DNA of 64,000 bases from Nanobdellota archaeon. Lineage in GTDB: Archaea > Nanobdellota > Nanobdellia > Pacearchaeales > GW2011-AR1. The notes beneath the pieces were generated by a model. That model worked only from the letters and a program-made list of their open reading frames with translations, did no database searches and was not told where the DNA came from. The position numbers and the translations under genes were made by a program. Positions 1,493-53,388 of the stretch are shown here, in pieces; the stretch's first letter is position 1; each line of letters opens with the position of its first letter. The stretch covers positions 72,562-136,561 of the forward strand of contig JAKADZ010000001.1 of NCBI GenBank assembly GCA_021818475.1. The letters run 5' to 3'.

Positions 1493-1584
1493 CTATTCTT
1501 TCTTCATCCCCTTAATATGTAAATCGTGCATTCATTTGGCTCGAAGAGACGAATGACATTTGAACTTCATTCAAATCACGAACT
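1493..1584. repeat. hairpin module plus displaced diverged copy of the Lhr C-terminal codons
   Basis: Core hairpin TCATTTGGCTCGAAGAGACGAATGA at 1532-1556. A second hairpin (7-bp stem) lies at 1558-1576. Positions 1493-1531 (minus) read ATGCACGATTTACATATTAAGGGGATGAAGAAAGAATAG = MHDLHIKGMKKE*, which mirrors the real Lhr end MHELHLKGIKE*. Confidence 0.65.
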
Positions 1585-4210: not shown

Positions 4211-4624
4211 ATGTTTCATATGAATAAAAAGACATACGAGATTAATCCTTACTTTAATCATAATAATTATAACATATTCTTTACAAATCTTGCTAACCCT
4301 CTTAAGATAGGAATAATACTTTCCTTAAGGATGAAAGAAAAAAATGTCAGCGAATTAGTCAAAGACTTAGGCGTTGAGCAAAGCAAACTTTCTCATGCAT
4401 TAAAATCTTTGAAAAGCTGTAATATTGTAAATATGAAACAAAATGGAAAAGAAAGAATTTATTCTTTAAACAGGGATACAATTCTTCCAATGTTAAGCCT
4501 TATCGACAAACATGCTAATATTCATTGTAAATGTTCATCCTGCATGAAAGGATGTGATATCAGCCATGAGCACAAATTCAGTGGGAAATTCGAGCGGAAG
4601 AAACCGGAGGTGTCGTCGCAATGA
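4211..4624 (+). CDS. ArsR/SmtB-family winged-helix transcriptional regulator with Cys/His-rich tail
   Basis: wHTH segment NVSELVKDLGVEQSKLSHALKSLKSCNIVNMKQNGKERIYSL and a metal-ligand-like tail HCKCSSCMKGCDISHEH. The start may be the ATG at 4220 (leaderless). The last ~17 codons come from repeat module 4571-4620. The stop overlaps the nifS ATG. Confidence 0.8.
   Translation: MFHMNKKTYEINPYFNHNNYNIFFTNLANPLKIGIILSLRMKEKNVSELVKDLGVEQSKLSHALKSLKSCNIVNMKQNGKERIYSLNRDTILPMLSLIDKHANIHCKCSSCMKGCDISHEHKFSGKFERKKPEVSSQ
4571..4620 (+). repeat. short form of the dispersed module (5' motif ACAAATTCAGTGGGAA + 3' motif AAGAAACCGGAGGTGTCGTCGCA)
   Basis: Near-identical ends to 27326-27375, and to the two ends of the long copies at 8167-8265 and 47524-47632. 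Contains GGAGGTG 9 nt upstream of the nifS ATG. Confidence 0.6.
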
Positions 4625-5772
4625 AAACAATATATTTTGACAACGCTGCAACGACAAGAGTCGACGATGAAGTTTTGAAAACAATGCTTCCTTATTTTAC
4701 TGAGAATTATGGAAATGCCTCTTCAATTCATTTCAAAGGCCAGGAAGCAAAAGATGCAATGGAAAAAAGCAGAAAGATAATCGCAAAAGCTTTGGGGGCA
4801 AAAACTGAAGAAATAATTTTTACTTCAGGGGGAACAGAATCAAATAATCTTGCATTGAAAGGATTATTCTTCTGGAATAAAGAAAATAACACGGGCAAAG
4901 ATCACATAATCACAACCAAAATCGAGCATGATTGTATTCTAAACACCTGCAAATGGCTGGAAAGACAGGGAGCAAAAGTAACTTATCTTGACGTTGACGA
5001 AGAAGGATTTGTCGATTTAAACCAGCTTGAAAAATCAATAACTGATAAAACAATTGTTGTTTCAATAATTCATGGGAATAATGAAATTGGGACAATACAG
5101 GACATGGAAAAAATTGGGAATATCTGCAGGAAGAAAGGAGTTTTATTCCATACTGATGCATGCCAAAGTTTCACAAAAACTTTCCTTGATGTTAAAAAAC
5201 AAAATCTTGATTTAGTAACATTAAATTCGCATAAAATACACGGGCCAAAAGGAGTCGGAGCGTTATATATTCGTGAAGGAATAAAAATAGTCCCTCTGAT
5301 GCATGGCGGAGGCCATGAAAGAAAAATAAGAAGCGGAACAGAAAATGTTTCCGGAATAGTCGGATTTGGAAAAGCAGTTGATATTGCAAATAAAAAAAAT
5401 GTTGAAAAAATGATTAAATTAAGAGATAAATTAATTGAAGGAATATTAAAAATCCCAAAAACAAGACTTAACGGGGCTAAAGAAAAAAGGCTCTGCAATA
5501 ATATAAATGTCTCTTTCAGCAACATAGAAGGAGAATCAATTAGTGGTTATCTGGAGACTCATGGCATCTGCACTTCTACAGGAAGTGCCTGTGCATCACA
5601 TTCATTGGAAACAAGTCATGTTTTGAAAGCAATCGGACTGCCTCCGGTTCAGTCAAACAGCACATTAAGAATCAGTATAAGCAAATATACCACCGAAGAA
5701 GAAGTTGATTATTTTTTAAAAGTTCTTCCTGGAATAGTTGAAAAATTAAGGAGGATGTCTCCAATAAAATGA
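4621..5772 (+). CDS. nifS: cysteine desulfurase (NifS/IscS type, class V aminotransferase)
   Basis: 383 aa. Motifs SGGTESNN, PLP-lysine context SHKIHGPKG and catalytic Cys loop STGSACAS. Confidence 0.92.
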   Translation: MKTIYFDNAATTRVDDEVLKTMLPYFTENYGNASSIHFKGQEAKDAMEKSRKIIAKALGAKTEEIIFTSGGTESNNLALKGLFFWNKENNTGKDHIITTKIEHDCILNTCKWLERQGAKVTYLDVDEEGFVDLNQLEKSITDKTIVVSIIHGNNEIGTIQDMEKIGNICRKKGVLFHTDACQSFTKTFLDVKKQNLDLVTLNSHKIHGPKGVGALYIREGIKIVPLMHGGGHERKIRSGTENVSGIVGFGKAVDIANKKNVEKMIKLRDKLIEGILKIPKTRLNGAKEKRLCNNINVSFSNIEGESISGYLETHGICTSTGSACASHSLETSHVLKAIGLPPVQSNSTLRISISKYTTEEEVDYFLKVLPGIVEKLRRMSPIK

Positions 5773-5824
5773 CACTTATTCATTCGCTAAATAAATTATC
5801 AAATGAGAGAATGAGCCCGATACA

Positions 5825-6064
5825 ATGAAAGAGTTAAGCAAATTAGTTCCTGGAGAAGAAGGAGTTATATCTGATATAACTTGTACTCGTGAACTTGCAA
5901 GCAGATTAATGACGATGGGAATTTATCGGGGAAATAAAATAACAATGCTTCGCGCTGCTCCTTTCGGAGGCCCACTCGAAGTTGACGTAGGATATAATGT
6001 GCTAATCAGAAAATCTGAGGCAAGATATGTTCAAGTAGAAAAATTGGAGGAAAATTTAAAATGA
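5825..6064 (+). CDS. feoA: FeoA-domain protein
   Basis: 79-aa SH3-like FeoA pattern (LVPGEEGVISDI...RLMTMGIYRGNKITMLR...GPLEVDV). No feoB in the window. Confidence 0.8.
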   Translation: MKELSKLVPGEEGVISDITCTRELASRLMTMGIYRGNKITMLRAAPFGGPLEVDVGYNVLIRKSEARYVQVEKLEENLK

Positions 6065-8169: not shown

Positions 8170-8445
8170 CCCACTATTAAAGGGAAGGTCAGGCCGAGCA
8201 TTTGCACGAATGCAGAAAATATCAATCGCAATGAGTGCGGGTGCGAGTTTAAGAAACCGGAGGCGAGCGATTTCGCGAGTGCCGGAAATTTAGTTTTCTT
8301 TTACACGTTAGCTTTTCTTTCTGCATTTCTATGCAGAATGGGCGGGATTCCACTCGCACTTTTTCTAAAAGAAAAACCACGCAATGAGCGAGGTCGGGAG
8401 GTGTTGTCGCAGAAACTAGTTTCACCAAAGGGATATTAAAGATTT
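8167..8445. repeat. mosaic GC-enriched intergenic repeat (long module, copy 1)
   Basis: Positions 8174-8260 match 47531-47617 almost base for base (GGGAAGGTCAGGCCGAGCATTTGCACGAATGCAGAAAATATCAAT..AATGAGTGCGGGTGCGAG). Also present are GATTTCGCGAGTGCCGGAAAT (compare 47432-, 53083-), CAATGAGCGAGGTCG (compare 53116-) and a second GGAGGTGTTGTCGCA end. Confidence 0.7.
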
Positions 8446-22377: not shown

Positions 22378-22539
22378 GGCTCCGTAGCTCACTGGGTTTC
22401 TTTAAAAAAGAAACTACAATGGTAGAAATGCTTAAAACGCATTCATTCGCTACTTCGCCAAAAGAAAAGGCTCCGTAGCTCAGCCTGGTTAAACTCAAAA
22501 CAGGAAGTTTTGGTAAGAACCATTCAGCTACATTACAAT
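22378..22539 (+). repeat. two extra 5' fragments of tRNA-Lys separated by filler containing a degenerate CGAATG hairpin module
   Basis: GGCTCCGTAGCTCA at 22378 and GGCTCCGTAGCTCAGCCTGGTTA at 22469 are identical to the first 14 and 23 nt of the intact tRNA at 22540. The upstream flank motif CTACAT..A.AAT is also duplicated. The module TCATTCGCTACTTCGCCAAAAGA lies at 22443-22465. Confidence 0.7.
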
Positions 22540-22614
22540 GGCTCCGTAGCTCAGCCTGGTTAGAGCACTGGACTTTTAATCCAGGTGTCGGGGGTTCAAA
22601 TCCCCTCGGGGCCA
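22540..22614 (+). tRNA. tRNA-Lys (anticodon TTT)
   Basis: Hand-folded cloverleaf: acceptor GGCTCCG/CGGGGCC (one G-U), D stem GCTC/GAGC, anticodon stem CTGGA/TCCAG, loop CTTTTAA, T arm GGGGG-TTCAAAT-CCCCT. CCA is not encoded. Confidence 0.9.
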
Positions 22615-22625
22615 TGAAGGATTGA

Positions 22626-27325: not shown

Positions 27326-27375
27326 CAACAAATTCAGTGGGAAGTTGATGCACAAGAAACCGGAGGTGTCTTAGC
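27326..27375 (+). repeat. short form of the dispersed module directly upstream of rpoA
   Basis: CAACAAATTCAGTGGGAAGTTGATGCACAAGAAACCGGAGGTGTCTTAGCA matches 4571-4620 at both ends and differs only in the central ~11 nt. GGAGGTG lies 8 nt upstream of the rpoA ATG. Confidence 0.6.
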
Positions 27376-30300
27376 ATGGTAATAGAAACAAAACCAGTCA
27401 AGAAAAGTGTAAGCGAAATAAGATTCGCTCTTCTTAGTCCTGACAACATCAAAAAAATTTCAGTTGCAAAAATAGTAACTCCCGAATTATATAACATTGA
27501 TGGTTATCCTGTCGACGGAGGTTTGATGGATTTAAGACTTGGAGCAATTGATCCAGGTGTAAGATGTAGAACTTGCGGAGGAAGATTAAAAGAATGTCTT
27601 GGCCATCCAGGCAGTATTGACCTTGCTCGTCCGGTGATTCACCTAAAATATGTTCCATTGATTGAATTAGGACTAAGATGTTTCTGTAAAGAATGCGGAA
27701 AATTATTGCTTTCTGACAAGGATTTGGAAAAATATTCAATGAGCGAGAGAGCAAAGAAAGCAAAAGATGCAAAGAAATGCCCTCATTGCGGTGCTGTTCA
27801 TGAAAAAATAAAACTTGATAAGCCGACAAGTTTCTTCGTCGGAAAAACAAGGCTTTTCCCAACTGAAATAAGAGAGATGCTTGTAAATATTCCAAATGAA
27901 GAACTGAAGAAGATAGGAATAAATACGACTACATGCCGTCCTGAATGGGCAATCCTTACAATGCTACTTGTTCCACCTGTAACAATTCGTCCTTCAATTA
28001 TTTTAGAATCAGGAGAAAGAAGTGAAGATGATTTGACTCACAAACTTTCAGACATAATCAGAGCAAATCAGAGACTTTGGGAAAACCTTAATGCAGGAGC
28101 TCCTGAAGTTATTATAGAAGACCTATGGGATTTATTGCAGTTCCACGTAACAACATTCTTTGATAACAGCGTCGCTAAAATTCCTCCTGCAAGACATAGA
28201 AGCGGACAGCCATTAAAAACAATAATGGAAAGAATCAAAGGTAAAGAAGGAAGAATAAGAAAGAATCTCGCAGGTAAAAGAGTAAACTATTCTGCAAGAA
28301 CAGTTATTTCTCCAGATCCGCAGATAGCAATAAATGAAGTCGGAATTCCTTTTGAAATTGCAAAAGTAGTAACTGTTGCAGAAGGAGTTACTGATTTAAA
28401 TATTGAAAAATTAAAGAAATTAATTCAAAAGGCAGATGAATATCCGGGAGCAAATTATATTATAAGACCCGACGGAAAAAGAAAAAAGATTACTGCTGAT
28501 TTGAAAGAAGAAATAATTAATGAAATAACACCCGGCTACAAAGTTGAAAGACATCTGCAGGACGGGGATGTTGTATTGTTTAACCGTCATCCTTCTCTTC
28601 ACAGAGGAAGTTTGATGGCCCACTTCGTTCGTGTATTGCCCGGAAGAACTTTCCGACTTCACCCCGCAGTTGCTGCGCCATACAACGCTGACTTCGACGG
28701 AGATGAAATGAATATTCACTCACCGCAGACAGAAGAAGCAAGAGCAGAAGCGAAGATTCTTTTGGATGTAAAAAGAAATTTATTCTCTCCAAAAAATAAC
28801 ACCAACTTAATCGGATGTATTGGAGATGCCATAACTGGAAATTACCTATTAGGAACAGAAGAATTTTCAAGAGATTATGCAAATCAGATTTTGTTCAAAT
28901 CTGAAATTAACAAGCAAATAACAAAGAAAACTGTAAGTGGGGCAGAAATTTTCTCAGCAATACTTCCAAAAATAAATTTCTCAAACGACTACATTCAGAT
29001 AAAAGATGGCGAGGTTACAAAAGGAATAATCAACAAAACATTATTCGGAAGTGAAGATGGGGAATTGATAAAAGAACTTGAAAAACAAATTGGAATAAAT
29101 GAAACATTTGAAATAATAAAGAAAGCGTTCACTCTCGGAATAAAATATTTATCAGACAAGGGAATCACAATCTCATTAGAAGATTTAGATCTTGATCAGA
29201 GTGTTATTGACGCGGGTGAAGAAGTAATTAAGAAAGCAGAAAAGAAAACAGAAGAAATAATTGAACAGTATAAGAAAGGAGAACTTGAGAGAATTCCGGG
29301 AAAGACCGACGAGGAATCAAGAGAAATAAGAATTCTTCAGACATTAAATGAAGTAAGAACAAAGATCGGGGAAATCGTCAAGGAGAAATTCCCTAAAGAT
29401 AATCCTGTTAATGATATGATTCAGTCAGGAGGCGGAGGAAATATACTGAATATTACTCAGATGGCTTCTTGCGTCGGACAGCAGGCTTTATGGGGCAGAA
29501 GAATTGATATTGGTTATGACAAAAGAACATTATCTTTCTTCCACAAAGGAGATCTATCTCCTCATTCAAGAGGATTTATAAGAAGTTCATTCATTAAAGG
29601 ACTTCGCCCTGATGAATTTTTCTTCGGAGCAGTTACAGGAAGAGACTCACTCATGGATACAGCATTAAGAACTCCAAAATCAGGATATTTATACAGAAGA
29701 CTTGCAAATGCACTGCAGGATTTGAGAGTGGAATATGACGGAACAGTAAGAGACAGCAACAATAATATAATACAGTATAAATATGGCGACGACGGAGTTG
29801 ATGTTTCAAAACTTCATATGAATGAACAGGTTGCTCCAGGAGAATCAATAGGAATCGTTACTGCACAGTCTTTCGGGGAACCATCAACACAAATGGCTCT
29901 TAACGTATTCCACTTCGCAGGAGTTCAGGAAATGCAGGTCACCAGCGGTCTTCCAAGATTAATTGAAATTTTCGACGCAAGAAAAAAACCTTCTTCACCA
30001 AAGATGGATATTTACTTGAAGAAAGAATATAACAACGAGAAAGATGCAAAAGTTTTCGCTGAAAAAATAAAAGAAGTAACATTAAAAGAAATTGCCTCAG
30101 AAATCAATTTGAATTTTAGTGATAAAACAATAACTATTGTAATAGATAAAGAAGGACTGAAACAAACACACAGTTCAATCAAAACAGTGGTAGAAAAATT
30201 GAATGACCTGGGATTCAGAGCAAAGGAAAAAGAAGATTCAATTTTGTTAAATGCGTCTGAATTTTCATTCAAAGAAATTTATCAGCTTAAAGAAAAATTA

Positions 30301-32640: not shown

Positions 32641-32961
32641 ATGAAAAAAACTAGATTTGAACAAATTAAAAGAGATTATCTTAAAGGAAGAAAACGACTT
32701 GAGAATATTGCTGTTGGAAGTTTAGTTTGGGAAGAAGTTGGTCATGGGGGCTGGGATATGGATTATCATCCTGCAGTTGTCAAATCTGTAAATGTTGATG
32801 AAGATTATATTGAGGTACTTGACGTCAGTGATAGGAATCAGGAAAAAAGATATACTTCTTTTTTAACTAGAGAAGAAATGGTAGCAAAAGGATTTTCAGA
32901 AGAATCTATTGAAGAGGATTATAAAAAATATGCAGAAGTTATTAAGACTTTAAAAAAATAA
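32641..32961 (+). CDS. hypothetical protein
   Basis: 106-aa ORF and first gene of the insert between rps7 and aEF-2. No family recognised. Confidence 0.5.
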   Translation: MKKTRFEQIKRDYLKGRKRLENIAVGSLVWEEVGHGGWDMDYHPAVVKSVNVDEDYIEVLDVSDRNQEKRYTSFLTREEMVAKGFSEESIEEDYKKYAEVIKTLKK

Positions 32962-32962
32962 A

Positions 32963-33187
32963 ATGACAATTGAATATAACGAGTATCAGCGTTCAGAAGA
33001 TTGTGCAAAAGAAATTTATTCTGATTTAAAAAAATTACCCTTGGAAATAAGAGAACACTTGCAATTAATGGTCCAGGAATCTCCAATCGCCGTCAGAGAA
33101 ATGCCCATTAATGAAGCAATAAAAAGATGCACTAAAAGAAGAAGCCCGTTTTTAGATGTTTCAGATTTAGTCGAACTGGACGATTAA
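32963..33187 (+). CDS. hypothetical protein
   Basis: 74-aa ORF, 1 nt after the preceding stop. No family recognised. Confidence 0.45.
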   Translation: MTIEYNEYQRSEDCAKEIYSDLKKLPLEIREHLQLMVQESPIAVREMPINEAIKRCTKRRSPFLDVSDLVELDD

Positions 33188-33233
33188 TTCTTCGAAGAAA
33201 CATTTAAATAGAAAATTTAATATCTTTATAGTA

Positions 33234-34133
33234 ATGAAAAAAGAGGGGGCATTCGCAGTTTTAATTATATTCCTAATTATTATTTTCTCTGAAGGAATAT
33301 CCGCAACATCTTATTGCATTAATCCTGTTGTTTCAGATATAAGCCCAAGTTCAATAGGAATAGACCAGGAATTCACCGTCGGTATTTTGCTTGACAACTG
33401 CGGAGATCAGGCGCCGCAGAATATAACCTTTGAATTAAAAGACATAAGCCCGGAGATAACAGTTAAAGAACCATTAGTCAGGAATTTAACAGAAATAGGT
33501 TCATTGGGAGACAGGTTTCTTCTTTATCACATGAAAACTTCAAATCAGATAATTCCGGGAGATTATTATATAAATTATAAGCTTGAATATTCCGGCGGAG
33601 ACGGAATTATTTACCCAAAAGAAGGAAGTTTCGTTGTTACAGTAACCGGAAATAAAGCAGAATTAAGCATAGCCTCTTCAAAAACAAATCCTGTAATGCC
33701 ATTGCAGGGCCAGGCAGTTGAATTAACATTAAGAATTGAAAATTATGGAAAGGGAACTGCAAATTCAATAAGAGTTTTATTAAATCATAATTTTTCAGGT
33801 TCAAGAGAAGCATTTATCGGAACACTCTCTCCTGATGAAGACGGTCCGGCAGTTTTCACTTTTATTCCCAAAAAAAATGGAGACTATATAATCCCGGTAA
33901 AAATTTTTTATCAGGACGATTTTGGGCAAAAAGAATTTGATACAAGTGTTGAAGTCTATGTTTCAGAAGCAGATTCAGGATGGCTTTACATATTATTTGG
34001 GGCAATAATCATTCTCATAATAGGAACACTGATTTTCTATTTATTCAAGATAAAAAGAACCAAAGAAAAAATAATACATCAGCTTCTGAGGGGAAGTCAT
34101 CCCGAAAAGAAAAAAATTTTGAAGAGAAAATGA
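33234..34133 (+). CDS. secreted, C-terminally anchored protein with two CARDB-like beta-sandwich domains
   Basis: Signal peptide (AFAVLIIFLIIIFSEGISA), two similar ~110-aa modules, a C-terminal TM helix (WLYILFGAIIILIIGTLIFYLF) and a basic tail. It lies immediately upstream of the ABC permease. Confidence 0.75.
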   Translation: MKKEGAFAVLIIFLIIIFSEGISATSYCINPVVSDISPSSIGIDQEFTVGILLDNCGDQAPQNITFELKDISPEITVKEPLVRNLTEIGSLGDRFLLYHMKTSNQIIPGDYYINYKLEYSGGDGIIYPKEGSFVVTVTGNKAELSIASSKTNPVMPLQGQAVELTLRIENYGKGTANSIRVLLNHNFSGSREAFIGTLSPDEDGPAVFTFIPKKNGDYIIPVKIFYQDDFGQKEFDTSVEVYVSEADSGWLYILFGAIIILIIGTLIFYLFKIKRTKEKIIHQLLRGSHPEKKKILKRK

Positions 34134-34134
34134 A

Positions 34135-35349
34135 ATGTTTAAAGATGTTAAAGTCGGATTCCTCACTGCAAAAAGTTCTGTAAAAAGAGGGAATAAAAAA
34201 ACAACTATATTCATAATTTTCGTTCTTTCTCTGATTTTCCTTAATCTAATTTTTTTGCCTTCACTGATAAACGGAATGATGAAATTATTTGTGGGATTTG
34301 TGCAGGATTATGCATATGGTGATGTTGTAATAGAACCTGCAGACGGGAATGTTTATATTAATGATGCAGATAATATTCTCACAAAAATAAGAAGCCTGAA
34401 TGATGTGGAAGCTGCTGCAAAAAGGCTGACGGTAGGGGCGTCGCTGGCGTATGAACAAAAAGAAGTGGGAGTCACGATTTTGGGGGTTGTTCCGTCGGAT
34501 GAAGAAAAAGTTTCATTATATCCTTATATTGTTAAAGAAGGAGATTTTTTGGGGGACTTATCCAGAAATGAAATTATAGTGGGGGCGATGATTGCAGGAA
34601 CCGGTCCGGGTTCAGAAATTTATGATAATCTGGGAGAAGTAAAAATCGGGTCACTTATTAATGCCACTTACGGGAATAATTTAAAAAAAATCTATAAGGT
34701 AAAGGGAATTCAGGAAGGAACTTTTGAATTGACTGATTTAAATGCCTTGGTTAGTTTTAAGGAACTGGAATCTGTTTTGGGAATTGAAGGAGAGCATAAA
34801 GCAAGCTCTATTGTGATAAGAGTTCAAAAAGCAGGCGAAGAAGCCGACGTGAAAAGTCAGATTTTAGGAATGGGAATCAAGGATAAAGTTTTCACGTGGC
34901 AGGAAAAAGCAGAAGTGCTTATAAAACAAGCAACTCAAAGTATGAGCACCCTTGATATAGTGTCAAAAATAGTCAGTCTAATTATCGGAGCTTCTCTTAT
35001 TTTTATTGTAAATTATATTAATACTTTAAACAGAAAAAAAGAAATCGGAATACTAAAAGCAGTTGGAGTGAGTCCTGCTTCAGTAATTATTTCTTATATT
35101 TTTATAAGCCTGTTTTATGTAATGATGGGAATAATATTAGGATTGGTTCTGTTTTTATTTTTGACTTTATATTTGCAGACAAACCCAATCACATTCTATG
35201 GTTCACTGAAAATTTACCCTGTTCTTGAACTTAGCCTGTTAATGCAGAGTATATTAATTATGATAACTATGTCATTGATTGCAGGCTTCCTGCCTTCATG
35301 GTTAGTCACAAAGGAGAGCATACTTGATGCAATCTGGAGCAGAGAATGA
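34135..35349 (+). CDS. ABC transporter permease, FtsX/MacB-like
   Basis: 404 aa. It has an N-terminal TM helix, a large extracytoplasmic domain, then three C-terminal TM helices with the FtsX-type segment (KKEIGILKAVGVSPASV). Confidence 0.88.
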   Translation: MFKDVKVGFLTAKSSVKRGNKKTTIFIIFVLSLIFLNLIFLPSLINGMMKLFVGFVQDYAYGDVVIEPADGNVYINDADNILTKIRSLNDVEAAAKRLTVGASLAYEQKEVGVTILGVVPSDEEKVSLYPYIVKEGDFLGDLSRNEIIVGAMIAGTGPGSEIYDNLGEVKIGSLINATYGNNLKKIYKVKGIQEGTFELTDLNALVSFKELESVLGIEGEHKASSIVIRVQKAGEEADVKSQILGMGIKDKVFTWQEKAEVLIKQATQSMSTLDIVSKIVSLIIGASLIFIVNYINTLNRKKEIGILKAVGVSPASVIISYIFISLFYVMMGIILGLVLFLFLTLYLQTNPITFYGSLKIYPVLELSLLMQSILIMITMSLIAGFLPSWLVTKESILDAIWSRE

Positions 35350-36047
35350 AATCAGAAGAACCAATAATCAAAATCAGAAATTTAAAGAGGCATTATAAAA
35401 CCGGAAAAGTAATTGTAAAAGCATTAAACGGAGTTTCATTTGATGTAAGAGAAGGTGAATTTTTGGCGATTATGGGGCCAAGCGGAAGCGGTAAAACAAC
35501 GCTGCTGAGGATTCTTGGGCTGATAGATAAACCCACAAGCGGACAATACACAATAAAAAATTTGGACGTAGTCAACCTGCCCGAAGAAGAAAAAATTTTT
35601 TACAGGCTGACGCAGCTGGGCTATGTATTCCAGGATTATGCGCTGGTCAATGAGATGAGTGCAATTGAAAATGTTTACATTATCTCCCTCATGGAAGATC
35701 TCTCAAAAGAACAATCACAGGAAACTGCAAAATTAGCCTTAGAAAGAGTCGGGCTAGGGGATAAATTAGACAGAATTCCTGATCAGCTTTCAGGAGGGGA
35801 AAAACAAAGAGTTGCAGTAGCAAGAGCAATTTCAAAAACACCAAAAATATTATTTGCCGACGAGCCTTGTGCAAACCTTGACACAAAAACCTCAAGACAG
35901 ATGCTTGAAATTTTCAAGATGCTGAATGAAAAATACGGCCAGACAATAGTAATGGTTACTCATGAAGACTGGCATACAGAATTTGTTTCGAGGATTATTA
36001 ATCTGAAAGACGGAAGGATAACAAGTGATAAAAAAGTATACAAGTGA
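35346..36047 (+). CDS. ABC transporter ATP-binding protein (MacB/LolD-type)
   Basis: Walker A GPSGSGKTT, Q-loop, signature LSGGEKQRV, Walker B ILFADEP and H-loop VTHE. Confidence 0.95.
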   Translation: MKSEEPIIKIRNLKRHYKTGKVIVKALNGVSFDVREGEFLAIMGPSGSGKTTLLRILGLIDKPTSGQYTIKNLDVVNLPEEEKIFYRLTQLGYVFQDYALVNEMSAIENVYIISLMEDLSKEQSQETAKLALERVGLGDKLDRIPDQLSGGEKQRVAVARAISKTPKILFADEPCANLDTKTSRQMLEIFKMLNEKYGQTIVMVTHEDWHTEFVSRIINLKDGRITSDKKVYK

Positions 36048-36114: not shown

Positions 36115-38307
36115 ATGGCAGAAAAAGAAACACAATTGCAGAAAATTCAGAGACTCAATTCTAGTCCGAAGAATATCAGAAATATAGCGACAAGCGCGCA
36201 CATTCACCACGGCAAGACTGCATTAACAGATAATCTTCTTGCAGCATCTGGTTATATGGCTGCAAAAAATGCAGGAAACCTTGAAGAAGGAATGGCAACA
36301 TGGCAGCACTCAGATGAACAGGAAAGATTAATGACTGTCGACGCTGCTAACGTTTCTATGGTTCACGATTTTCAGGGTGAACAGTATTTAATTAATTTAA
36401 TTGATACCCCAGGTCACGTCGATTTCGGAGGAAATGTTACAAGGGCTATGAGAGCTATCGACGGAACAATCGTTTTGGTATGCGCTGTCGAGGGAATAAT
36501 GCCCCAGACAGAGACAGTTATCAAACAGGCATTGAGAGAAAGAGTTCAGCCGGTTTTATTTATCAATAAAGTTGACAGATTAATCAAAGAAATGAAACTG
36601 ACTCCAGAAAGCATGCAGCAAAGATTTGTAAAAATCATCAATGAATTTAATGATTTAATTGCAAAAATTGCAGAACCTGAATTTAAAGAAAAATGGCTTG
36701 TTAATATTAATGATGGAAGTGTTGCATTCGGAAGTGCGAAAGAAAACTGGGCATTGTCAGTTCCGTTTATGAAAAAAAATGGAATTACTTTCAAAGATAT
36801 TTTTACATTAGTTGAAATGAACGACGCTGACAGAAAAGAATGGACATGGAAAAATGCGCCGTTATATGAAGTTCTTTTGGATATGGCAGTAAAACATTTA
36901 CCTAATCCTTTAGAAGCACAGAAATACAGAATTCCAAAAATCTGGAAAGGAGATTTAGATTCTGAATTCGGGAAAGATTTAATGAACTGCAATCCAAACG
37001 GAAAAATTGGTTTTGTCATCACAAGAATTGTAATCGACCCTCGTTCAGGAAAAGAAATTTCAGCAGGAAGATTATTCTCTGGAACATTAAGAAATGGTAT
37101 GGATGTTCATCTTAACTTGGCAAACAAAGAACAAAAAGTTCAGCAGATATTTGTATACAATGGAGTAAAGCCCGAACAGATTGATGAAATCGGTCCTGGA
37201 AATGTATTAGCAATTTCAGGAGTTACAGGAGAAGCTGGAGAAACTGTAACAGTAGGTCCTGAAACTCCTTTCGAAGAATTGAAACATATTTTTGAACCGG
37301 TAGTTACAAAGTCAATTGAAGTAAAAAAGATGATGGACTTGCCAAAGCTCGTCGAGATTTTGAAACAGGTCGCAAAAGAAGACCCTTCTGTTAAAGTTGA
37401 AATTAATGAACAGACAGGAGAATCTTTAATTTCAGGAATGGGGGAACTTCATCTGGAAATTATTGAAAACAGAATTAAAACCGAGAAAGGACTTGATGTA
37501 AAAACTTCAGCACCTATCGTAGTATACAGGGAAACAGTCAATAAAGAATCACCTTCTGTCGAGGGAAGAAGTCCAAACAAACACAATAGTTTCTTTATTT
37601 CAGTCGAGCCTTTGGAAGATGATGTTTATGAAGCAATCAAAAGCGGAGAAATTCCCGAGGGAAGAGTCAAGAAAAAGAGCGGAGAACTTGCAACAAAATT
37701 CTCAAGATTCCCCGAATGGGATAACGAAACTGTAAAGAGCATCAGGGATATTTACAAAGGAAATGTTTTCTTCGACAAAACAAAAGGAGAAGTTCACATC
37801 GGTGAAGTTATCGAAATGGTATTGGACGCTTTCGAAATGGTTATTGACAAAGGACCATTGGCAAGAGAACCATGCACCAAGATGAAAGTTTCTCTTATGG
37901 ATATCAGACTTCACGAAGATGCAATTCACAGAGGTCCTGCTCAGGTTTACCCTGCAGTAAGGGAAGCAATGACTGAAGCAATGAAACAGGGGGACGCTTG
38001 TCTGCTTGAACCGGTCCAGATTCACCTAATTGAAGTTCCCGACAGATTTATGAACACAATCACAAGACTAGTCGGAGGCAAGAGAGGACAAATGCTTGAA
38101 GTATCTCAGGAAGGAGATGAAACACAAATAAGAGCAAAGATTCCCGTCGCTGAAATGATTGGATGGAGCAATGACTTGCGTTCTGCAACAGAAGGAAGAG
38201 GAGTTTCATCACTGGCAGATCAGTTATTCGAAAAAGTTCCTCGTTCTTTGACTGATGAAATCGTTAGAAAGATCAGAGAAAGAAAAGGTTTAGCCGAAAA
38301 CCAGTAA
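36115..38307 (+). CDS. fusA: translation elongation factor 2 (aEF-2)
   Basis: 730 aa. G1 AHIHHGKT, G3 DTPGH, NKVDR and the diphthamide-region HEDAIHRG. Confidence 0.97.
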   Translation: MAEKETQLQKIQRLNSSPKNIRNIATSAHIHHGKTALTDNLLAASGYMAAKNAGNLEEGMATWQHSDEQERLMTVDAANVSMVHDFQGEQYLINLIDTPGHVDFGGNVTRAMRAIDGTIVLVCAVEGIMPQTETVIKQALRERVQPVLFINKVDRLIKEMKLTPESMQQRFVKIINEFNDLIAKIAEPEFKEKWLVNINDGSVAFGSAKENWALSVPFMKKNGITFKDIFTLVEMNDADRKEWTWKNAPLYEVLLDMAVKHLPNPLEAQKYRIPKIWKGDLDSEFGKDLMNCNPNGKIGFVITRIVIDPRSGKEISAGRLFSGTLRNGMDVHLNLANKEQKVQQIFVYNGVKPEQIDEIGPGNVLAISGVTGEAGETVTVGPETPFEELKHIFEPVVTKSIEVKKMMDLPKLVEILKQVAKEDPSVKVEINEQTGESLISGMGELHLEIIENRIKTEKGLDVKTSAPIVVYRETVNKESPSVEGRSPNKHNSFFISVEPLEDDVYEAIKSGEIPEGRVKKKSGELATKFSRFPEWDNETVKSIRDIYKGNVFFDKTKGEVHIGEVIEMVLDAFEMVIDKGPLAREPCTKMKVSLMDIRLHEDAIHRGPAQVYPAVREAMTEAMKQGDACLLEPVQIHLIEVPDRFMNTITRLVGGKRGQMLEVSQEGDETQIRAKIPVAEMIGWSNDLRSATEGRGVSSLADQLFEKVPRSLTDEIVRKIRERKGLAENQ

Positions 38308-38362
38308 GGCTAAATCATTCATTCGTCAAAGCCAAATGAAAGGACTTGCTGAGAATCAGTAA
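38289..38362. repeat. stop-spanning hairpin, CGAATG-type hairpin module and displaced synonymous copy of the aEF-2 C-terminal codons
   Basis: TTTAGCC (38289-38295) pairs with GGCTAAA (38308-38314) across the stop codon. The core TCATTCGTCAAAGCCAAATGA lies at 38319-38339. Positions 38339-38362, AAAGGACTTGCTGAGAATCAGTAA, encode KGLAENQ*, identical to the real C-terminus. Confidence 0.7.
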
Positions 38363-38378
38363 AATTTCTAAATAAAAA

Positions 38379-38630
38379 ATGACAACCAAAGGATTACTCC
38401 AACTTTGTGAAATAAATCTTGAAAAATTAAGAAAAGGTGAACTTTCCTCAGAAGATTTTTATGAAATTTACAGAGAACATATTAAAAATCACGAAAGTGA
38501 AATTGAAAGATTAAGTGAAGAAAATGAAAAATACCGAAGAGGAGCAAAATATCTAAAACAAGAAATTAAAAAAATAAAAACAGAACTCTCTGATTTAGAA
38601 TTTAATTATACAAGTTTGTTTGAGAATTAG
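38379..38630 (+). CDS. hypothetical coiled-coil protein
   Basis: 83-aa ORF, K/E-rich with heptad-like sequence. No family recognised. Confidence 0.45.
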   Translation: MTTKGLLQLCEINLEKLRKGELSSEDFYEIYREHIKNHESEIERLSEENEKYRRGAKYLKQEIKKIKTELSDLEFNYTSLFEN

Positions 38631-38664
38631 TAATCTCCGACGAAAAAATTAATTTTTATTTGAA

Positions 38665-38952
38665 TTAATCGTAATCAGAAATTTTATAATCACAAATTTC
38701 ACATCGGTAAACTGTTATTTCAGAACAGTCTCCAAGTTTTATTGTTCCATCATATGCCATACTTTTAACCCCGCATTTTTCACAGAATCTTTTCCCATTT
38801 GGAGTTTTAGGCATTGAATTACGAAGTTCTTCTTCGAGTTTTGAAATTTCCCCTCGGTATAATGAAATTTTTGGATTAATCTCTTCAGATAAAATTTTGT
38901 ATATCTCTCCTTTTTTTCTGAATTTTTCTTTTTGTCTTTCAGTTAATGCCAT
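38665..38952 (-). CDS. hypothetical zinc-ribbon protein
   Basis: 95 aa with an N-terminal coiled segment and C-terminal CEKCG...CEIC (CxxC-N22-CxxC). Confidence 0.55.
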   Translation of the reverse strand: MALTERQKEKFRKKGEIYKILSEEINPKISLYRGEISKLEEELRNSMPKTPNGKRFCEKCGVKSMAYDGTIKLGDCSEITVYRCEICDYKISDYD

Positions 38953-41272: not shown

Positions 41273-41656
41273 ATGTTAAGAGAATTGCCTGCAAGACAAA
41301 TTGAAGGAGATGATTTCAGGAGAATCTTTTCCGGAGATAACCTGCGTCTTTATGTCTGGTATCTCTCAGGAAACTATAGGAATGAAGAAGATATAATGGG
41401 ATTTCAGCTGTGTTTTGAAGAGGGAGATCAAATTGTTCATCTAAAAAAATCGCTAATCTGGAAAAAAAGAGGGGGTTATATTCTTGAGGATGATGACGAA
41501 CCAACAGGGAGTTTTGACCAGGATTCAGTATTAATTTCATTATCTCAAAACAGATTAAATAATCAGGAACTTGCAGAAAAATTTTCGAATTCAGGGAAAA
41601 ATATCGACGAGAAAATCAGAGATTTTGTTTTTAAAAAAATTGAAGAATATGAATAG
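41273..41656 (+). CDS. hypothetical protein
   Basis: 127-aa ORF. No family recognised. Confidence 0.55.
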   Translation: MLRELPARQIEGDDFRRIFSGDNLRLYVWYLSGNYRNEEDIMGFQLCFEEGDQIVHLKKSLIWKKRGGYILEDDDEPTGSFDQDSVLISLSQNRLNNQELAEKFSNSGKNIDEKIRDFVFKKIEEYE

Positions 41657-41695
41657 AAATATATTATAACCTCTTTTTCACAAATCAGGAGAAGG

Positions 41696-41859
41696 CTCTC
41701 AAAGGGAAAACATATTAAAGAAAATTTTAGGTGTTCTCATCAGCCTTGAGCAGTCTCTTAAAGGGAAAACATATTAAAGAAAACCGATTAGGTGTTCTCA
41801 TCAGCCTTGAGCAGTCTCTTAAAGGGAAAACATATTAAAGAAAACCGATTAGGTGTTCT
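41696..41859 (+). repeat. tandem repeat, about 2.7 copies of a 59-61-nt unit
   Basis: The unit is CTCTTAAAGGGAAAACATATTAAAGAAAACCGATTAGGTGTTCTCATCAGCCTTGAGCAGT, with copies starting at 41696, 41755 and 41816. Copies 2 and 3 are identical over their shared length, and copy 1 differs in the AAATTTTAGG segment. Confidence 0.9.
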
Positions 41860-42082
41860 TTAGTTGAACAAACGCGTTAAATTTTTTTTATGAATTATTT
41901 TTTCCTATTGGAGAAATCTGACGAAGTCAATTTCATAGCAATTTATAACCAAAATTTCTAAAAAAATTTTTGCAAATCATTTTGTATTGAAATTTTTCCG
42001 GTGAAGGGAGAACAAAGAAATCAGAATGATAAATACAATAAACAATAATAATCCTTAAATACTAATCATTAATAATTTTTTT

Positions 42083-44600: not shown

Positions 44601-45419
44601 ATGATTATGACAAAATCAGATTCGAACATTAATTTTGGCCCTTCGGGCCTCGGTCCTGTTAAAGATGCAATTTCAAATCTTGAAATGTATCATCAGCTCG
44701 GATTAAAAGCATGTGAAGTGGCTTTCACTTATGGTATATACATTAAGGAAAAAGAAGATGCAATAAAGATAGGAAAAAAAGCAGAAGAGCTCGGAATAAA
44801 ATTAAGTATTCATGCCCCTTACTGGATTAACTTAAATTCTAAAGAGAAAAAGAAAGTCGAAGAAAGCAAAAAAAGAATTTTAGACTGCTGCAAAATTGGA
44901 ACATTAATGAAAGCTTATCGGGTTGTATTTCACACAGGATTTTATTCCGGGATGGATAAGGAAGAAGCTTATGAAAATATTAAAAAAAGAATTTTGGAAA
45001 TCCAGGAAGGAATGAAAAAAGAAAAATACACTCCAAAATTAGCTCCGGAAATAATGGGAAAAGTAAATGTTTTTGGAAGTGTGGAAGAAATTTCGAGACT
45101 TTCAAAAGAAACCGGCTGCTCTTTCTGCATAGATTTCGCACACATTCTTGCAAGGTACAAAAGTTATCGCATAAAAGAGACACTTAGTGAATTTAAAGAA
45201 GCAAAAGAATTGCACATTCATTTTTCCGGAATTGAATATGGAGAAAAGGGAGAAAAAAACCATAAGAAAACCCCTGAAAAAGACCTGAAAACTCTCATAT
45301 CTGAACTGCCAAAAAATAAAGATATTGTAATCATAAATGAATCACCTTATCCGGTAGAAGATTCTGTTCTTGGATTAGCAATAAGCAGGCGTGACCACAC
45401 TCTTAAAGGGAAAACATAA
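44601..45419 (+). CDS. nfo: AP endonuclease family 2 / endonuclease IV-like TIM-barrel protein
   Basis: SIHAPYWINLNS, VVFHTG and FCIDFAHI match the metal-ligand blocks of endonuclease IV-like enzymes. The last ~6 codons (HTLKGKT*) lie within repeat copy 45400-45447. Confidence 0.65.
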   Translation: MIMTKSDSNINFGPSGLGPVKDAISNLEMYHQLGLKACEVAFTYGIYIKEKEDAIKIGKKAEELGIKLSIHAPYWINLNSKEKKKVEESKKRILDCCKIGTLMKAYRVVFHTGFYSGMDKEEAYENIKKRILEIQEGMKKEKYTPKLAPEIMGKVNVFGSVEEISRLSKETGCSFCIDFAHILARYKSYRIKETLSEFKEAKELHIHFSGIEYGEKGEKNHKKTPEKDLKTLISELPKNKDIVIINESPYPVEDSVLGLAISRRDHTLKGKT

Positions 45420-45447
45420 TAAAGAAAACCGGTTAGATGTTCTTTAC
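45400..45447 (+). repeat. solo copy of the 41696-type unit
   Basis: CTCTTAAAGGGAAAACATAATAAAGAAAACCGGTTAGATGTTCTTTA matches the first ~45 nt of the tandem unit, including the terminal GTTCTTTA seen in the last tandem copy. Confidence 0.65.
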
Positions 45448-47307: not shown

Positions 47308-47632
47308 CTTTTTTTTCTTTATCGCCCTTTTTTGAAATATAATAATTAATCAATTTTATCTAAAACCCGCATTAAAAATTTTCCCCATTAATAATTTTCA
47401 TCGGAAATTTTTCCTCAACGAAAGTGAGTGATTTCGCGAATGCCAGAAATATTAAATGCAATGAGCTGGGTCGCGAATTAGGAAAAATTTCATTTATCTC
47501 AAAAAATTCTTATCAGGCATGACCACAAATTTAGTGGGAAGGTCAGGCCGAGCATTTGCACGAATGCAGAAAATATCAATGGTAATGAGTGCGGGTGCGA
47601 GTTAACGAAACCGGAAGTGTCGTCGCATTTTT
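47308..47632 (+). repeat. composite GC-enriched intergenic repeat (module B followed by long module A, copy 2)
   Basis: Positions 47308-47515 align with 52975-53195 (for example GATTTCGCGAATGCCAGAAATATTAAATGCAATGAGCTGGGTCGCGAAT versus ...CCAAAAATATTAAATGCAATGAGCGAGGTCGCAAAT). Positions 47524-47632 align with 8167-8265. The repeat fills the whole spacer between ORF 46877..47293 and smc. Confidence 0.7.
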
Positions 47633-52455: not shown

Positions 52456-52479
52456 GGAGAAATATCTCTTCAATATTAT

Positions 52480-52597
52480 AGCGGGGTGGAGCAGCCTGGA
52501 GTGCTCGTCGGGCCCATAAGCAAATCCGTAGGTTTGTATTCCTACGCTGTCGCATAGGAAACCCGAAGGTCGTGTGGTTCAAATCCCACCCCCGCTA
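52480..52597 (+). tRNA. initiator tRNA-Met (anticodon CAT) with ~42-nt intron at the canonical 37/38 position
   Basis: Acceptor AGCGGGG/CCCCGCT (A1:U72) and anticodon stem TCGGG/CCCGA (three G-C pairs 29-31:39-41) are initiator hallmarks. The loop is CCCATA, followed by the intron at ~52519-52560, which contains its own hairpin CGTAGG/CCTACG. The T arm has one extra nucleotide (GTGTGG versus CCCAC). Confidence 0.85.
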
Positions 52598-52617: not shown

Positions 52618-52688
52618 CCCCTCATAGCATAGTGGTAATGCAGTCGGCTGTAGACCGGCGTATCCAAGTTCGATTCTTGGTGAGGGGA
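52618..52688 (+). tRNA. tRNA-Tyr (anticodon GTA)
   Basis: Acceptor CCCCTCA/TGAGGGG with the archaeal/eukaryal C1:G72 identity pair, D stem GCAT/ATGC, anticodon stem GTCGG/CCGGC, loop CTGTAGA, T arm CCAAG-TTCGATT-CTTGG, discriminator A. Confidence 0.92.
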
Positions 52689-52960
52689 TATAATTCGGTT
52701 AAGCGAAGCGAAATCGAATTCATTAAAGAATCGAACGTAGTTTCATTTGGCTCGAAGAGACGAATGAGAGGGAACGAGCGAAGCGAAGTGAACTCCGATT
52801 CTTGGTGAGGGGACTTTTATATTCCGCAAATAGAAAATAATTCCCTGTTGGGCGGGCGAGAGTTTTCGCGATGGTAAGGTCAGTGTTAAGTGGGCGGGGG
52901 CTCGAGCTGGTGAGGGGACTTTATTATTTCACGAATAGAAAAATAATTCCGTTCTGTGCA
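52689..52960 (+). repeat. two inserts, each followed by a repeated tRNA-Tyr 3' end plus original downstream flank
   Basis: CGATTCTTGGTGAGGGGA at 52796-52813 is identical to the tRNA 3' end, and TGGTGAGGGGA recurs at 52908-52918. Both are followed by a similar ~45-nt flank (CTTT.AT.ATT.C.CG.AAATAGAAAA.TAATTCC). Insert 1 (52689-52794) carries the core TCATTTGGCTCGAAGAGACGAATGA (52743-52767) and an inverted copy of the T-arm (AAGAATCGAAC). Insert 2 (52851-52907) is GC-rich. Confidence 0.75.
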
Positions 52961-52974
52961 GGAGAGAATTTTAA

Positions 52975-53251
52975 CTTTTTTCTTTATCACCTCTTTTTGA
53001 AAGGTGTTTATAAATTTTAATAACCTTCGGAGATTTACTCCTTTAACAACTTTTATCGGAAATTTTTTCTTTCCGAAGGTGAACGATTTCGCGAATGCCA
53101 AAAATATTAAATGCAATGAGCGAGGTCGCAAATCAGAAAAAATTTTATTTATCTTAAAAATTTCTGAAAGAAATTTTTGCATTTTTTTCTATTAGTATGA
53201 GAAGAAATAAATGAGTGAGGTTACGATTTAAGAAAACCGATTAAGTGTTCT
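52975..53251 (+). repeat. composite intergenic repeat (module B copy 2 plus truncated module A 3' end)
   Basis: Aligns with 47308-47515. The following AATGAGTGAGGTTACGATTTAAGAAAACCGATTAAGTGTTCT parallels AATGAGTGCGGGTGCGAGTTTAAGAAACCGGAGG of the long module and the AAGAAAACCGATTAGGTGTTCT of the 41696 tandem unit. Confidence 0.65.
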
Positions 53252-53388
53252 CCACTAACGAAATATTTAAAAAAGAAAATTACAGAATAAAATTATAAAG
53301 AGGGGAAAATGAAGGAATTAAAAGAAAAAGAAGAAGAGGAAGAAGAGGAAATTTTTGACGACGTCATTGACGACCTCGAACTTGACAG

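Follow-up and report, generated by a model that had tools for sequence, protein, structure and literature searches.

A small hairpin element at the duplicated 3'-end of an archaeal aEF-2 gene

In a Pacearchaeota-type DPANN archaeon of approximately 34% GC the gene of elongation factor aEF-2 appears to end twice. The gene lies on the plus strand at 36115-38307 of the 64,000-nt stretch analysed here (contig JAKADZ010000001.1, positions 72,562 to 136,561; called the window and numbered from its first letter). It codes for 730 amino acids and was recognized from the open reading frame (ORF) list and the EF-G/EFTU Pfam domains. Its terminus, AAA GGT TTA GCC GAA AAC CAG TAA (38284-38307), encodes KGLAENQ and the stop codon, and after a spacer of 31 nt the sequence AAA GGA CTT GCT GAG AAT CAG TAA (38339-38362) encodes the same residues and stop again. 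An earlier note on this DNA had drawn attention to the two copies and to a hairpin between them, and had proposed that ends evolved in different lineages were brought together by insertion or recombination. The locus raises the question of which end is native and how the other one came to stand beside it.

The two ends of the aEF-2 gene

Direct reading confirmed that KGLAENQ is encoded twice and that the copies differ at six nucleotides in five codons, all six differences being synonymous: GGT/GGA, TTA/CTT (two differences), GCC/GCT, GAA/GAG and AAC/AAT (copy 1/copy 2). Copy 2, offset by +55 nt, is not in frame with the gene, and an ATG stands before it at 38336. The encoded terminus, RKGL[AS]ENQ, was invariant among 120 aEF-2 homologues. 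The similarity continues past the stop codon, where TAA is followed by GGCTAAAT in the first copy and by AATTTCTAAAT in the second, with CTAAAT common to both, and the repeated unit therefore measures about 32-35 nt. The upstream copy with its trailer of about 8 nt (38284-38315, plus strand) will be called X1, the downstream copy with its trailer (38339-38373, plus strand) X2.

The spacer consists of GGCTAAAUC followed by the hairpin core TCATTCGTCAAAGCCAAATGA. The former base-pairs with GGUUUAGCC of the first copy. This is the inverted repeat described earlier as 7 bp long; the repeat is present, but it comprises 9 bp including one G.U pair (38287-38295/38308-38316). The loop of the resulting hairpin, hp2 (GGUUUAGCC/GGCUAAAUC, 38287-38316, plus strand), contains the final codons with the stop codon, and the hairpin lies wholly within X1. 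Of the six synonymous changes between X1 and X2, four give rise to pairs of hp2, as read from the sequence. The hairpin core was found at 38319-38339, as the earlier note had it. This second hairpin, hp1 (TCATTTGGCTTTGACGAATGA), is assigned to the minus strand, the only one on which it folds well as RNA (-5.2 kcal/mol, z -6.8, versus -0.1 kcal/mol on the plus strand). The region spanning both hairpins (38284-38342) had a predicted RNA fold of -13.7 kcal/mol (z -4.1).

An assembly artefact was considered and rejected. The same aEF-2 protein was found on eight contigs, and two contigs from different ENA samples were 100% identical over 38240-38400. Since independent assemblies are identical across the duplicate, it is not a misassembly.

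The native end was identified by aligning orthologous gene ends, the check suggested in the earlier note. In seven relatives (L034, L003, L004/L035, L005, L103/L104 and L105; aEF-2 89-94% identical in amino acid sequence) the gene has a single end and no hairpin. Over 24 nt X2 differs from the gene ends of L005, L103 and L004 by only 1-2 nt, and its flank AATTTCT is similar to ATTTCT of L004. X1 and the closest relative, L034, disagree at 7 of 24 positions; the nearest counterpart of X1 is the end of L105 (3 nt), the most distant relative examined, which shares the X1-like codons only and lacks hp1. Given the seven empty sites and the match of X2 to native ends, X2 is the displaced native end, and X1 together with hp1 is the insert. 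The insertion brought in about 55 nt (38284-38338) at a point 21 nt before the aEF-2 stop codon. The gene now terminates in X1, a re-coded replacement end, and the original end stands untranslated directly 3' of hp1. Because X1 encodes the same residues, the protein is unchanged.

The upstream 120 nt adjoining X1 are 85% identical to L034 and 76% identical to L105. As the nearest neighbour of X1 differs from that of this segment, the ancestry signal switches at the start of X1. Between orthologues at comparable distance about 30-35% of synonymous codons differ, whereas between X1 and X2 five of seven codons differ and X2 shows no decay. Gradual divergence of an in-situ duplicate is therefore unlikely, in agreement with the earlier argument against neutral decay.

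Two observations concern the gene and its surroundings. The aEF-2 homologues P0059 and P0065 (Pacearchaeota) are about 1200 amino acids long and contain intein/LAGLIDADG domains, and aEF-2 therefore also hosts classical homing elements. Upstream of the gene, 32641-36047 holds four genes, including an FtsX/ABC transporter pair, between rpS7 and aEF-2; the relatives L003, L004 and L005 have at most one small ORF between S7 and aEF-2.

The hairpin family in the window and in related genomes

Read on the strand opposite to aEF-2, the hp1 core is TCATTTGGCT-loop-GACGAATGA, with the flank consensus S-T-T before and R-T-G after the hairpin. When either base was allowed at the mismatched position, 64 copies were found in 433 kb of low-GC contigs, while shuffled sequences gave 0-2. 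All 64 carry a T.G mismatch, which is C.A on the opposite strand, and none has a Watson-Crick pair there. Redundancy removed, 43-44 copies remained in the 433 kb of related contigs. In a GTDB scan 9 of 28 exact matches fell in Woese-, Pace- or Nanoarchaeota (DPANN) metagenome-assembled genomes (MAGs), and the others are consistent with about 22 random matches, a hand estimate from the database size. Approximately 40 of 63 metagenome loci were low in GC and DPANN-like. Two patterns searched in viral contigs gave no match. In the whole window Rfam reported only two tRNAs at the gathering threshold, and around the element at tRNA-Tyr nothing with E up to 10. A full-text literature search found no description of an element of this type. 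The family is apparently undescribed so far and appears to be specific to Pacearchaeota/Woesearchaeota-type DPANN archaea.

Individual hairpins are 21-27 nt long and whole inserts 45-100 nt. With TCATTCG...CAAATGA on the top strand the order is X1, second hairpin (hp2), hp1 and X2. The flanks tend to be duplicated: the mean alignment score was 13.0 versus 8.1 in mismatched controls, and 15 of 44 copies exceeded the 95th percentile of the controls. Young copies carry identical duplications, of 34-36 nt at a protein gene end in L052, of 35-37 nt from the tRNA T-loop through 20 nt of trailer in L014 and L041, and of 21 nt in L008 and L092. The basic event of the family is therefore an in-place duplication of the target. 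In copies at tRNA genes an inverted repeat co-varies with the T-loop of the host tRNA (AATCGAAC for the T-loop TTCGATT, ATTTGAAC for TTCAAAT), and the second hairpin shows compensatory stem changes (GGC/GCC, GAG/CTC, AAG/CTT, AGT/GCT) and a conserved GA...GUGA loop. In copies at protein genes hp2 is formed by X1 and a short inverted repeat of X1.

The claim that the aEF-2 architecture recurs in the window held for Lhr, NifS, tRNA-Tyr and tRNA-Lys, which together with aEF-2 give five copies of hp1 in the 64 kb. The motif proposed for finding them has five matches versus 0.1 expected, roughly 50-fold over chance. Two of these (8199 and 47553) come from an unrelated repeat of 80 nt whose 'loop' measures 2 nt, and the motif missed two family members, at 5780-5806 (NifS end) and 22443-22465 (upstream of tRNA-Lys). 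Among 248 stop-to-stop segments only aEF-2 and NifS had duplicated gene ends, and both adjoin hp1. The duplicated end of Lhr was identified by alignment, not by the segment scan.

At the end of the Lhr helicase gene (1493-1620, minus strand) X1 (1585-1620) encodes MHELHLKGIKE and a stop codon. Inverted-repeat hairpins, which are inverted copies of X1, follow at 1557-1584, then hp1 (1532-1556) and X2 (1493-1531), which encodes MHDLHIKGMKKE and a stop codon. Relatives have single ends, and both versions resemble natural Lhr C-termini. At the end of the NifS-like gene (5752-5828, plus strand, with the conserved hp1 strand on minus) X1 (5752-5772) reads AGG ATG TCT CCA ATA AAA TGA and encodes RMSPIK, hp1 occupies 5780-5806, and X2 (5808-5828) reads AGA ATG AGC CCG ATA CAA TGA and encodes RMSPIQ, its TGA overlapping the ATG of a FeoA-like ORF. 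The relative L102 ends in AGG ATG AGC CCG ATA AAA TGA without hp1. The downstream copy shares AGC CCG with this relative, where the upstream copy has TCT CCA; as L102 has AGC CCG and no hp1, X2 is the native end and X1 the re-coded one (Ser AGC to TCT).

The tRNA-Lys locus (22378-22615, plus strand; tRNA at 22539-22615) has two partial copies of the 5' part of the tRNA upstream of the gene (from 22378 and at 22469-22491), each followed by a hairpin and an hp1-like hairpin, with a degenerate hp1 at 22443-22465. At tRNA-Tyr (locus 52618-52920, plus strand; tRNA at 52618-52688) the 3' side carries an inverted copy of the T-loop (52728-52736), hp1 (52743-52767), a conserved hairpin 'P3' (52768-52795), a copy of the segment from the T-loop to the 3' end (52796-52813) and a third partial copy at about 52903-52920. 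The trailer after the second tRNA-Tyr 3' copy (52803-52866) is repeated at 52908-52972 with 80% identity. Repetition of the trailer after the third partial copy suggests that successive insertions were stacked at this gene. Next to it, at 52472-52597 on the plus strand, lies an intron-containing tRNA (anticodon CAT, an intron of about 45 nt after the anticodon loop), which ARAGORN did not report and of which Rfam detected the 3' half only.

Copies also occur within reading frames. At no fewer than nine loci (at least 9) the frame is open through hp1 as [T/A]HSSxSQM[K/R], the hairpin there being 23 or 26 nt long. The DnaG gene of the window is an empty site for an insertion of 45 nt (15 amino acids) present in L065, L087 and L058, and Elp3 of L073 has extra residues relative to the structure PDB 5l7j (REVGFNP-THSSKSQM-REIGFN). 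The stem of hp1 contains ATGA, overlapping start and stop codons. The ATG in the 3' arm serves as the start codon at L010, L015 and the rpL14 and rpS14 genes of L054, and in the remaining frame the TGA terminates the upstream ORF. One open frame (THSSxSQM) and the ATGA in the stem would explain why hp1 is tolerated in ORFs and at gene starts. In L054 the two starts, in one ribosomal-protein operon, carry an identical 35-nt variant of hp1 (1985-2019 and 4037-4071), whose loop contains the Shine-Dalgarno sequence GGAG and whose 3' arm includes the ATG. In orthologous insertions hp1 is 96-100% identical and the flanks 68%; hp1 is therefore either constrained or homogenised.

A tRNA intron carries the unit as well. 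In L014 (7816-7968; also in L041 near 2116) a tRNA-Glu(UUC) gene has a canonical 81-nt bulge-helix-bulge (BHB) intron that holds an hp1+hp2 unit, with the 5' splice site within hp1 (TCA/TTTGG..., the slash marking the site) and a typical hp2 next to it. The element either invaded this intron or seeded one.

Other repeats were noted in the window. The 80-nt repeat to which the two unrelated motif matches belong is GC-rich, contains CATTTGCACGAATG and occurs at 8182-8261 and 47536-47615 (95% identical); it has no duplicated gene end and no Rfam match, and may be a small RNA or another element. An intergenic repeat of 133 nt at 47378-47510 and 53033-53165 (83% identical) has the motifs GATTTCGCGAATGCC and GCAATGAGC..GGTCGC. 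Three tandem copies of a 61-nt unit (41668-41860) follow a gene ending at 41656, and single relatives of this unit lie at 45372-45446, at the end of the gene 44601-45419, and at 53226-53252. A conserved leader-like motif, ACAAATTCAGTGGGAA...AAGAAACCGGAGGTGTC, stands directly upstream of the start codons of unrelated genes at 4572-4620 and 27328-27376 and was found in L102 downstream of nifS; these genes may share a region for regulation or for the initiation of translation.

Origin of the aEF-2 duplicate

The duplicate at aEF-2 is probably explained by insertion of a tiny non-autonomous hairpin element whose cassette, X1 plus hp1, likely came from another Pacearchaeota lineage. The family would insert de novo beside an S-T-T motif on the hp1 strand, duplicating 12-37 nt of the target and always leaving an intact gene end, tRNA end or reading frame. 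At aEF-2 the cassette would not derive recently from the genome's own gene end. X1 would instead have served for a long time as the working gene end in another, element-bearing Pacearchaeota lineage, and X1 and hp1 may have entered the host lineage as a unit, by recombination or by the integration machinery of the element itself. The right-hand junction of the insert is the exact start of the native copy X2. Import of the cassette is favoured because of the excess divergence of X1, the switch of nearest neighbour at its start with an X1-like allele in L105, and the parallel case of NifS, which has the same polarity, X2 with the codons of the relative and X1 with TCT for AGC. Of the lineage-joining insertion proposed earlier, the insertion is established by the seven empty sites, while X1 looks either foreign or rapidly re-coded. 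The related idea that incoming DNA supplied a replacement end holds as far as the upstream copy is the newcomer; the identical 34-37-nt duplications of L052, L014 and L041, however, indicate that the family works basically by duplication in place and not by bringing in a foreign end. The unvarying T.G mismatch, like the sequence conservation of the stem, suggests that a protein recognises one strand of hp1. Together with the conserved stem foot and the repeats complementary to the target, the mismatch also suggests that the hairpin is recognised in single-stranded form, with base-pairing to the target.

Import was weighed against a purely local origin, in which hp1 came in with a target duplication of about 35 nt made in situ, as in the young copies, and the translated copy X1 was then rapidly re-coded by selection, either to form hp2 or to lower repeat identity against deletion by slippage, X2 staying unchanged by chance. 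This origin is possible, and we consider import the better account at aEF-2. The identical duplications in the young copies are what a local event would leave, the aEF-2 duplication runs past the stop codon as expected of a target duplication, and hp2 of DnaG likewise consists of a target copy and an adjacent inverted repeat. As four of the six changes create hp2, local selection could explain part of the re-coding; two changes, however, lie in the hairpin loop and are left unexplained by pairing. The insert is absent at 94% amino acid identity, yet the proportion of differing codons is well beyond the 30-35% of orthologues and X2, expected to be neutral, has not decayed. Local re-coding also fits poorly with the serine codon of NifS, where TCT versus AGC requires three nucleotide changes via non-Ser intermediates, and with the likeness of X1 to a natural allele of the distant lineage L105.

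Three further explanations were considered much less probable. That hp1 is the 'solo' end left by a larger integrative element (provirus, plasmid or casposon-like) whose body was deleted from the aEF-2 3' end is improbable, even though casposons have been reported at the 3'-distal region of aEF-2 and at tRNA gene 3' ends with target duplications (PMC4046053) and the window has stacked partial tRNA copies such as integrative elements leave. All of the approximately 40 copies are small and share one compact architecture in many genomes, copies in ORFs and in a tRNA intron do not look like att-site scars, viral contigs gave no matches, and Cas1, PolB and integrase are absent from the window. No pair of hp1 hairpins was seen to bracket element genes: the pairs kilobases apart, tried as element ends, are the rpS14/rpL14 start hairpins in L054, and in L014 and L041 the second copy lies in the tRNA-Glu intron. 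The earlier comparison with elements integrating at tRNA or gene 3' ends thus survives as an analogy only, no integrase, larger element or viral copy having been found. Slightly less probable still is a host cis-acting RNA or DNA module (3'-end stabiliser, translation coupling or protein-binding site) formed by hp1 and hp2, with the duplicate as a by-product. The conservation of hp1 above its flanks at orthologous sites would fit such a module, as would the stop/start ATGA within the stem and the variants at rpS14 and rpL14, where the stem includes the start codon and the loop a Shine-Dalgarno sequence; but hp1 is present or absent among close relatives at aEF-2, NifS, Lhr and DnaG, is found in either orientation relative to transcription, lies within ORFs and tRNA trailers and in a tRNA intron, and barely folds on the aEF-2 mRNA strand, and its function would leave the duplicated gene end unexplained. 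An intrinsic terminator (GC-rich stem plus T run) was rejected, as 38100-38700 contains no terminator-like site. Least probable of all is an archaeal BHB intron cut from the mRNA by the tRNA-splicing endonuclease. The related genomes are rich in such introns (the tRNA at 52472-52597 of the window is an example), and the canonical tRNA-Glu intron of L014 and L041 does contain the unit. However, a scanner validated on the L014 intron (h=6, h'=6) found no comparable excising motif at aEF-2, NifS, Lhr or the tRNA-trailer copies, the sole candidate at tRNA-Tyr having weak flanking helices of 3 bp; X1 makes splicing unnecessary, and the in-ORF copies keep the frame with an hp1 of 23 or 26 nt and a total length of 45 nt, which is what translation would require. 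A diversity-generating retroelement was also rejected: the differences (T/A, TA/CT, C/T, A/G, C/T) are not adenine-specific and the window has no reverse transcriptase.

Several points weigh against an imported mobile cassette. No hp1-bearing aEF-2 end that could be the donor allele was present among the seven relatives checked, and the nearest-neighbour argument at aEF-2 involves 24 nt only. At Lhr it is the upstream copy, not the downstream one, that is slightly closer to relatives. What looks like a foreign origin could be local adaptive re-coding, as four of the six synonymous changes go into forming hp2. The conservation of hp1 in orthologous in-ORF copies could reflect a host function rather than a merely selfish element. 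Among the approximately 40 ORFs of the window Pfam revealed no transposase, integrase, Cas1 or reverse transcriptase, and viral contigs contained no copies; mobility is therefore deduced only from presence/absence and the identical young duplications.

A bolder and rather unlikely reading is that hp1 elements are homing mini-elements, in which an enzyme recognises the single-stranded hairpin, guide-like inverted repeats pair with the target and a re-coded 'rescue' copy moves along. The enzyme might be encoded by the host or by the element. The guides would be the repeats adjacent to hp1 that co-vary with the target, including those that form hp2 in ORFs, and a Cas1-like integrase with a long ruler (about 21 or 36 nt) may act. 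If true, such elements would be the natural counterpart of synthetic home-and-rescue gene drives.

Significance and comparison with known elements

If insertion of a hairpin element is the correct explanation, it would show how tiny mobile elements spread through the most conserved and essential genes of minimal archaeal genomes (aEF-2, tRNAs, DnaG, Elp3 and ribosomal protein genes) without cost: the interrupted end is duplicated or replaced, and the element can be read in frame. They would provide a natural insertion of the 'rescue-carrying' kind that can be tested, together with target duplications of great length, both with a bearing on the evolution of Cas1-type and hairpin-recognising integrases. 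The elements add 15 amino acids to universal proteins and leave pseudo gene ends, pseudo halves of tRNAs and spurious mini-ORFs behind. In DPANN MAGs this can mislead annotation, the prediction of tRNAs and phylogenetic markers that rely on indels. As alleles with and without the insert encode the same protein, the elements can also be used as neutral markers of recombination between lineages.

Like miniature inverted-repeat transposable elements, which are small (<300 bp), non-coding and multicopy, the hp1 element is short (45-100 nt) and repeated (five copies in 64 kb), and it duplicates its target, at a length far outside their usual 2-15 bp. It differs from them in having no terminal inverted repeats: the sole conserved palindrome, hp1, is internal and at one side, while the opposite side holds either a variable hairpin or an inverted repeat derived from the target. 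A related autonomous insertion sequence (IS) with a transposase was not among the approximately 40 ORFs of the window. Rickettsia palindromic elements and other intragenic elements of this miniature type are small multicopy palindromes that occur in frame in protein genes and also in RNA genes (reviewed in PMC10969869). The hp1 element resembles them in being non-coding, multicopy, translated in frame as a short peptide and without a transposase of its own. It is archaeal, however, and 5-6 times smaller than these elements of about 100-150 nt. It also has a single hairpin with an invariant T.G mismatch, no terminal inverted repeats, and unusually long target duplications of 12-37 nt, often at gene ends with a re-coded replacement.

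Target duplications of casposons measure 14-15 bp, and the longest duplications of the hp1 family, 34-37 nt, have the length of a CRISPR repeat and not of ordinary transposon duplications. Target choice recalls casposons, which are reported to insert in the 3'-distal region of aEF-2 and at the 3' ends of tRNA genes and to duplicate the target (PMC4046053): the hp1 element too is found at the aEF-2 end and at many tRNA loci, with a duplicated target and an intact gene, although this is a resemblance only. The 'repeat-insert-repeat' stacks at tRNA-Tyr and tRNA-Lys are casposon- or CRISPR-like. Unlike casposons, hp1 elements are tens of nucleotides long, not kilobases, have no terminal inverted repeats and also lie in ORFs; their tRNA target is the T-loop and not the last 4-7 nt, and no Cas1 (casposase) or PolB is encoded in the window.

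Some integrative elements bring along, in their attP site, the 3' portion of a gene for a tRNA or a protein, and some insertions of free-standing homing endonucleases replace the C-terminus of a gene, for example fungal mitochondrial atp6. In both, as at aEF-2, a working gene end comes in, the native end is displaced downstream and left untranslated, and the two ends differ as orthologues do. The hp1 element differs in that it lacks an element body as well as a gene for a recombinase or endonuclease, and in combining one hairpin with many targets, each with its own matching duplicate.

In the hairpin itself the closest parallels are the repetitive extragenic palindromes and bacterial interspersed mosaic elements (REP/BIME) and the palindromes derived from IS200/IS605 (PMC3733652). 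They share with hp1 an imperfect hairpin of 20-40 nt, high copy number, a strand-specific conserved mismatch and conserved nucleotides at the foot of the stem, which in hp1 suggest that the hairpin is recognised in single-stranded form. In contrast to palindromes mobilised by REP-associated tyrosine transposases, hp1 has STT...RTG instead of a GTAG or CGTC tag, copies are found in ORFs, and no Y1 transposase is encoded in the window; IS200/IS605 elements make no target duplications, whereas the hp1 element does. Without the defining features of each class compared, the hp1 element is filed here as a variant of the small non-autonomous insertion elements.

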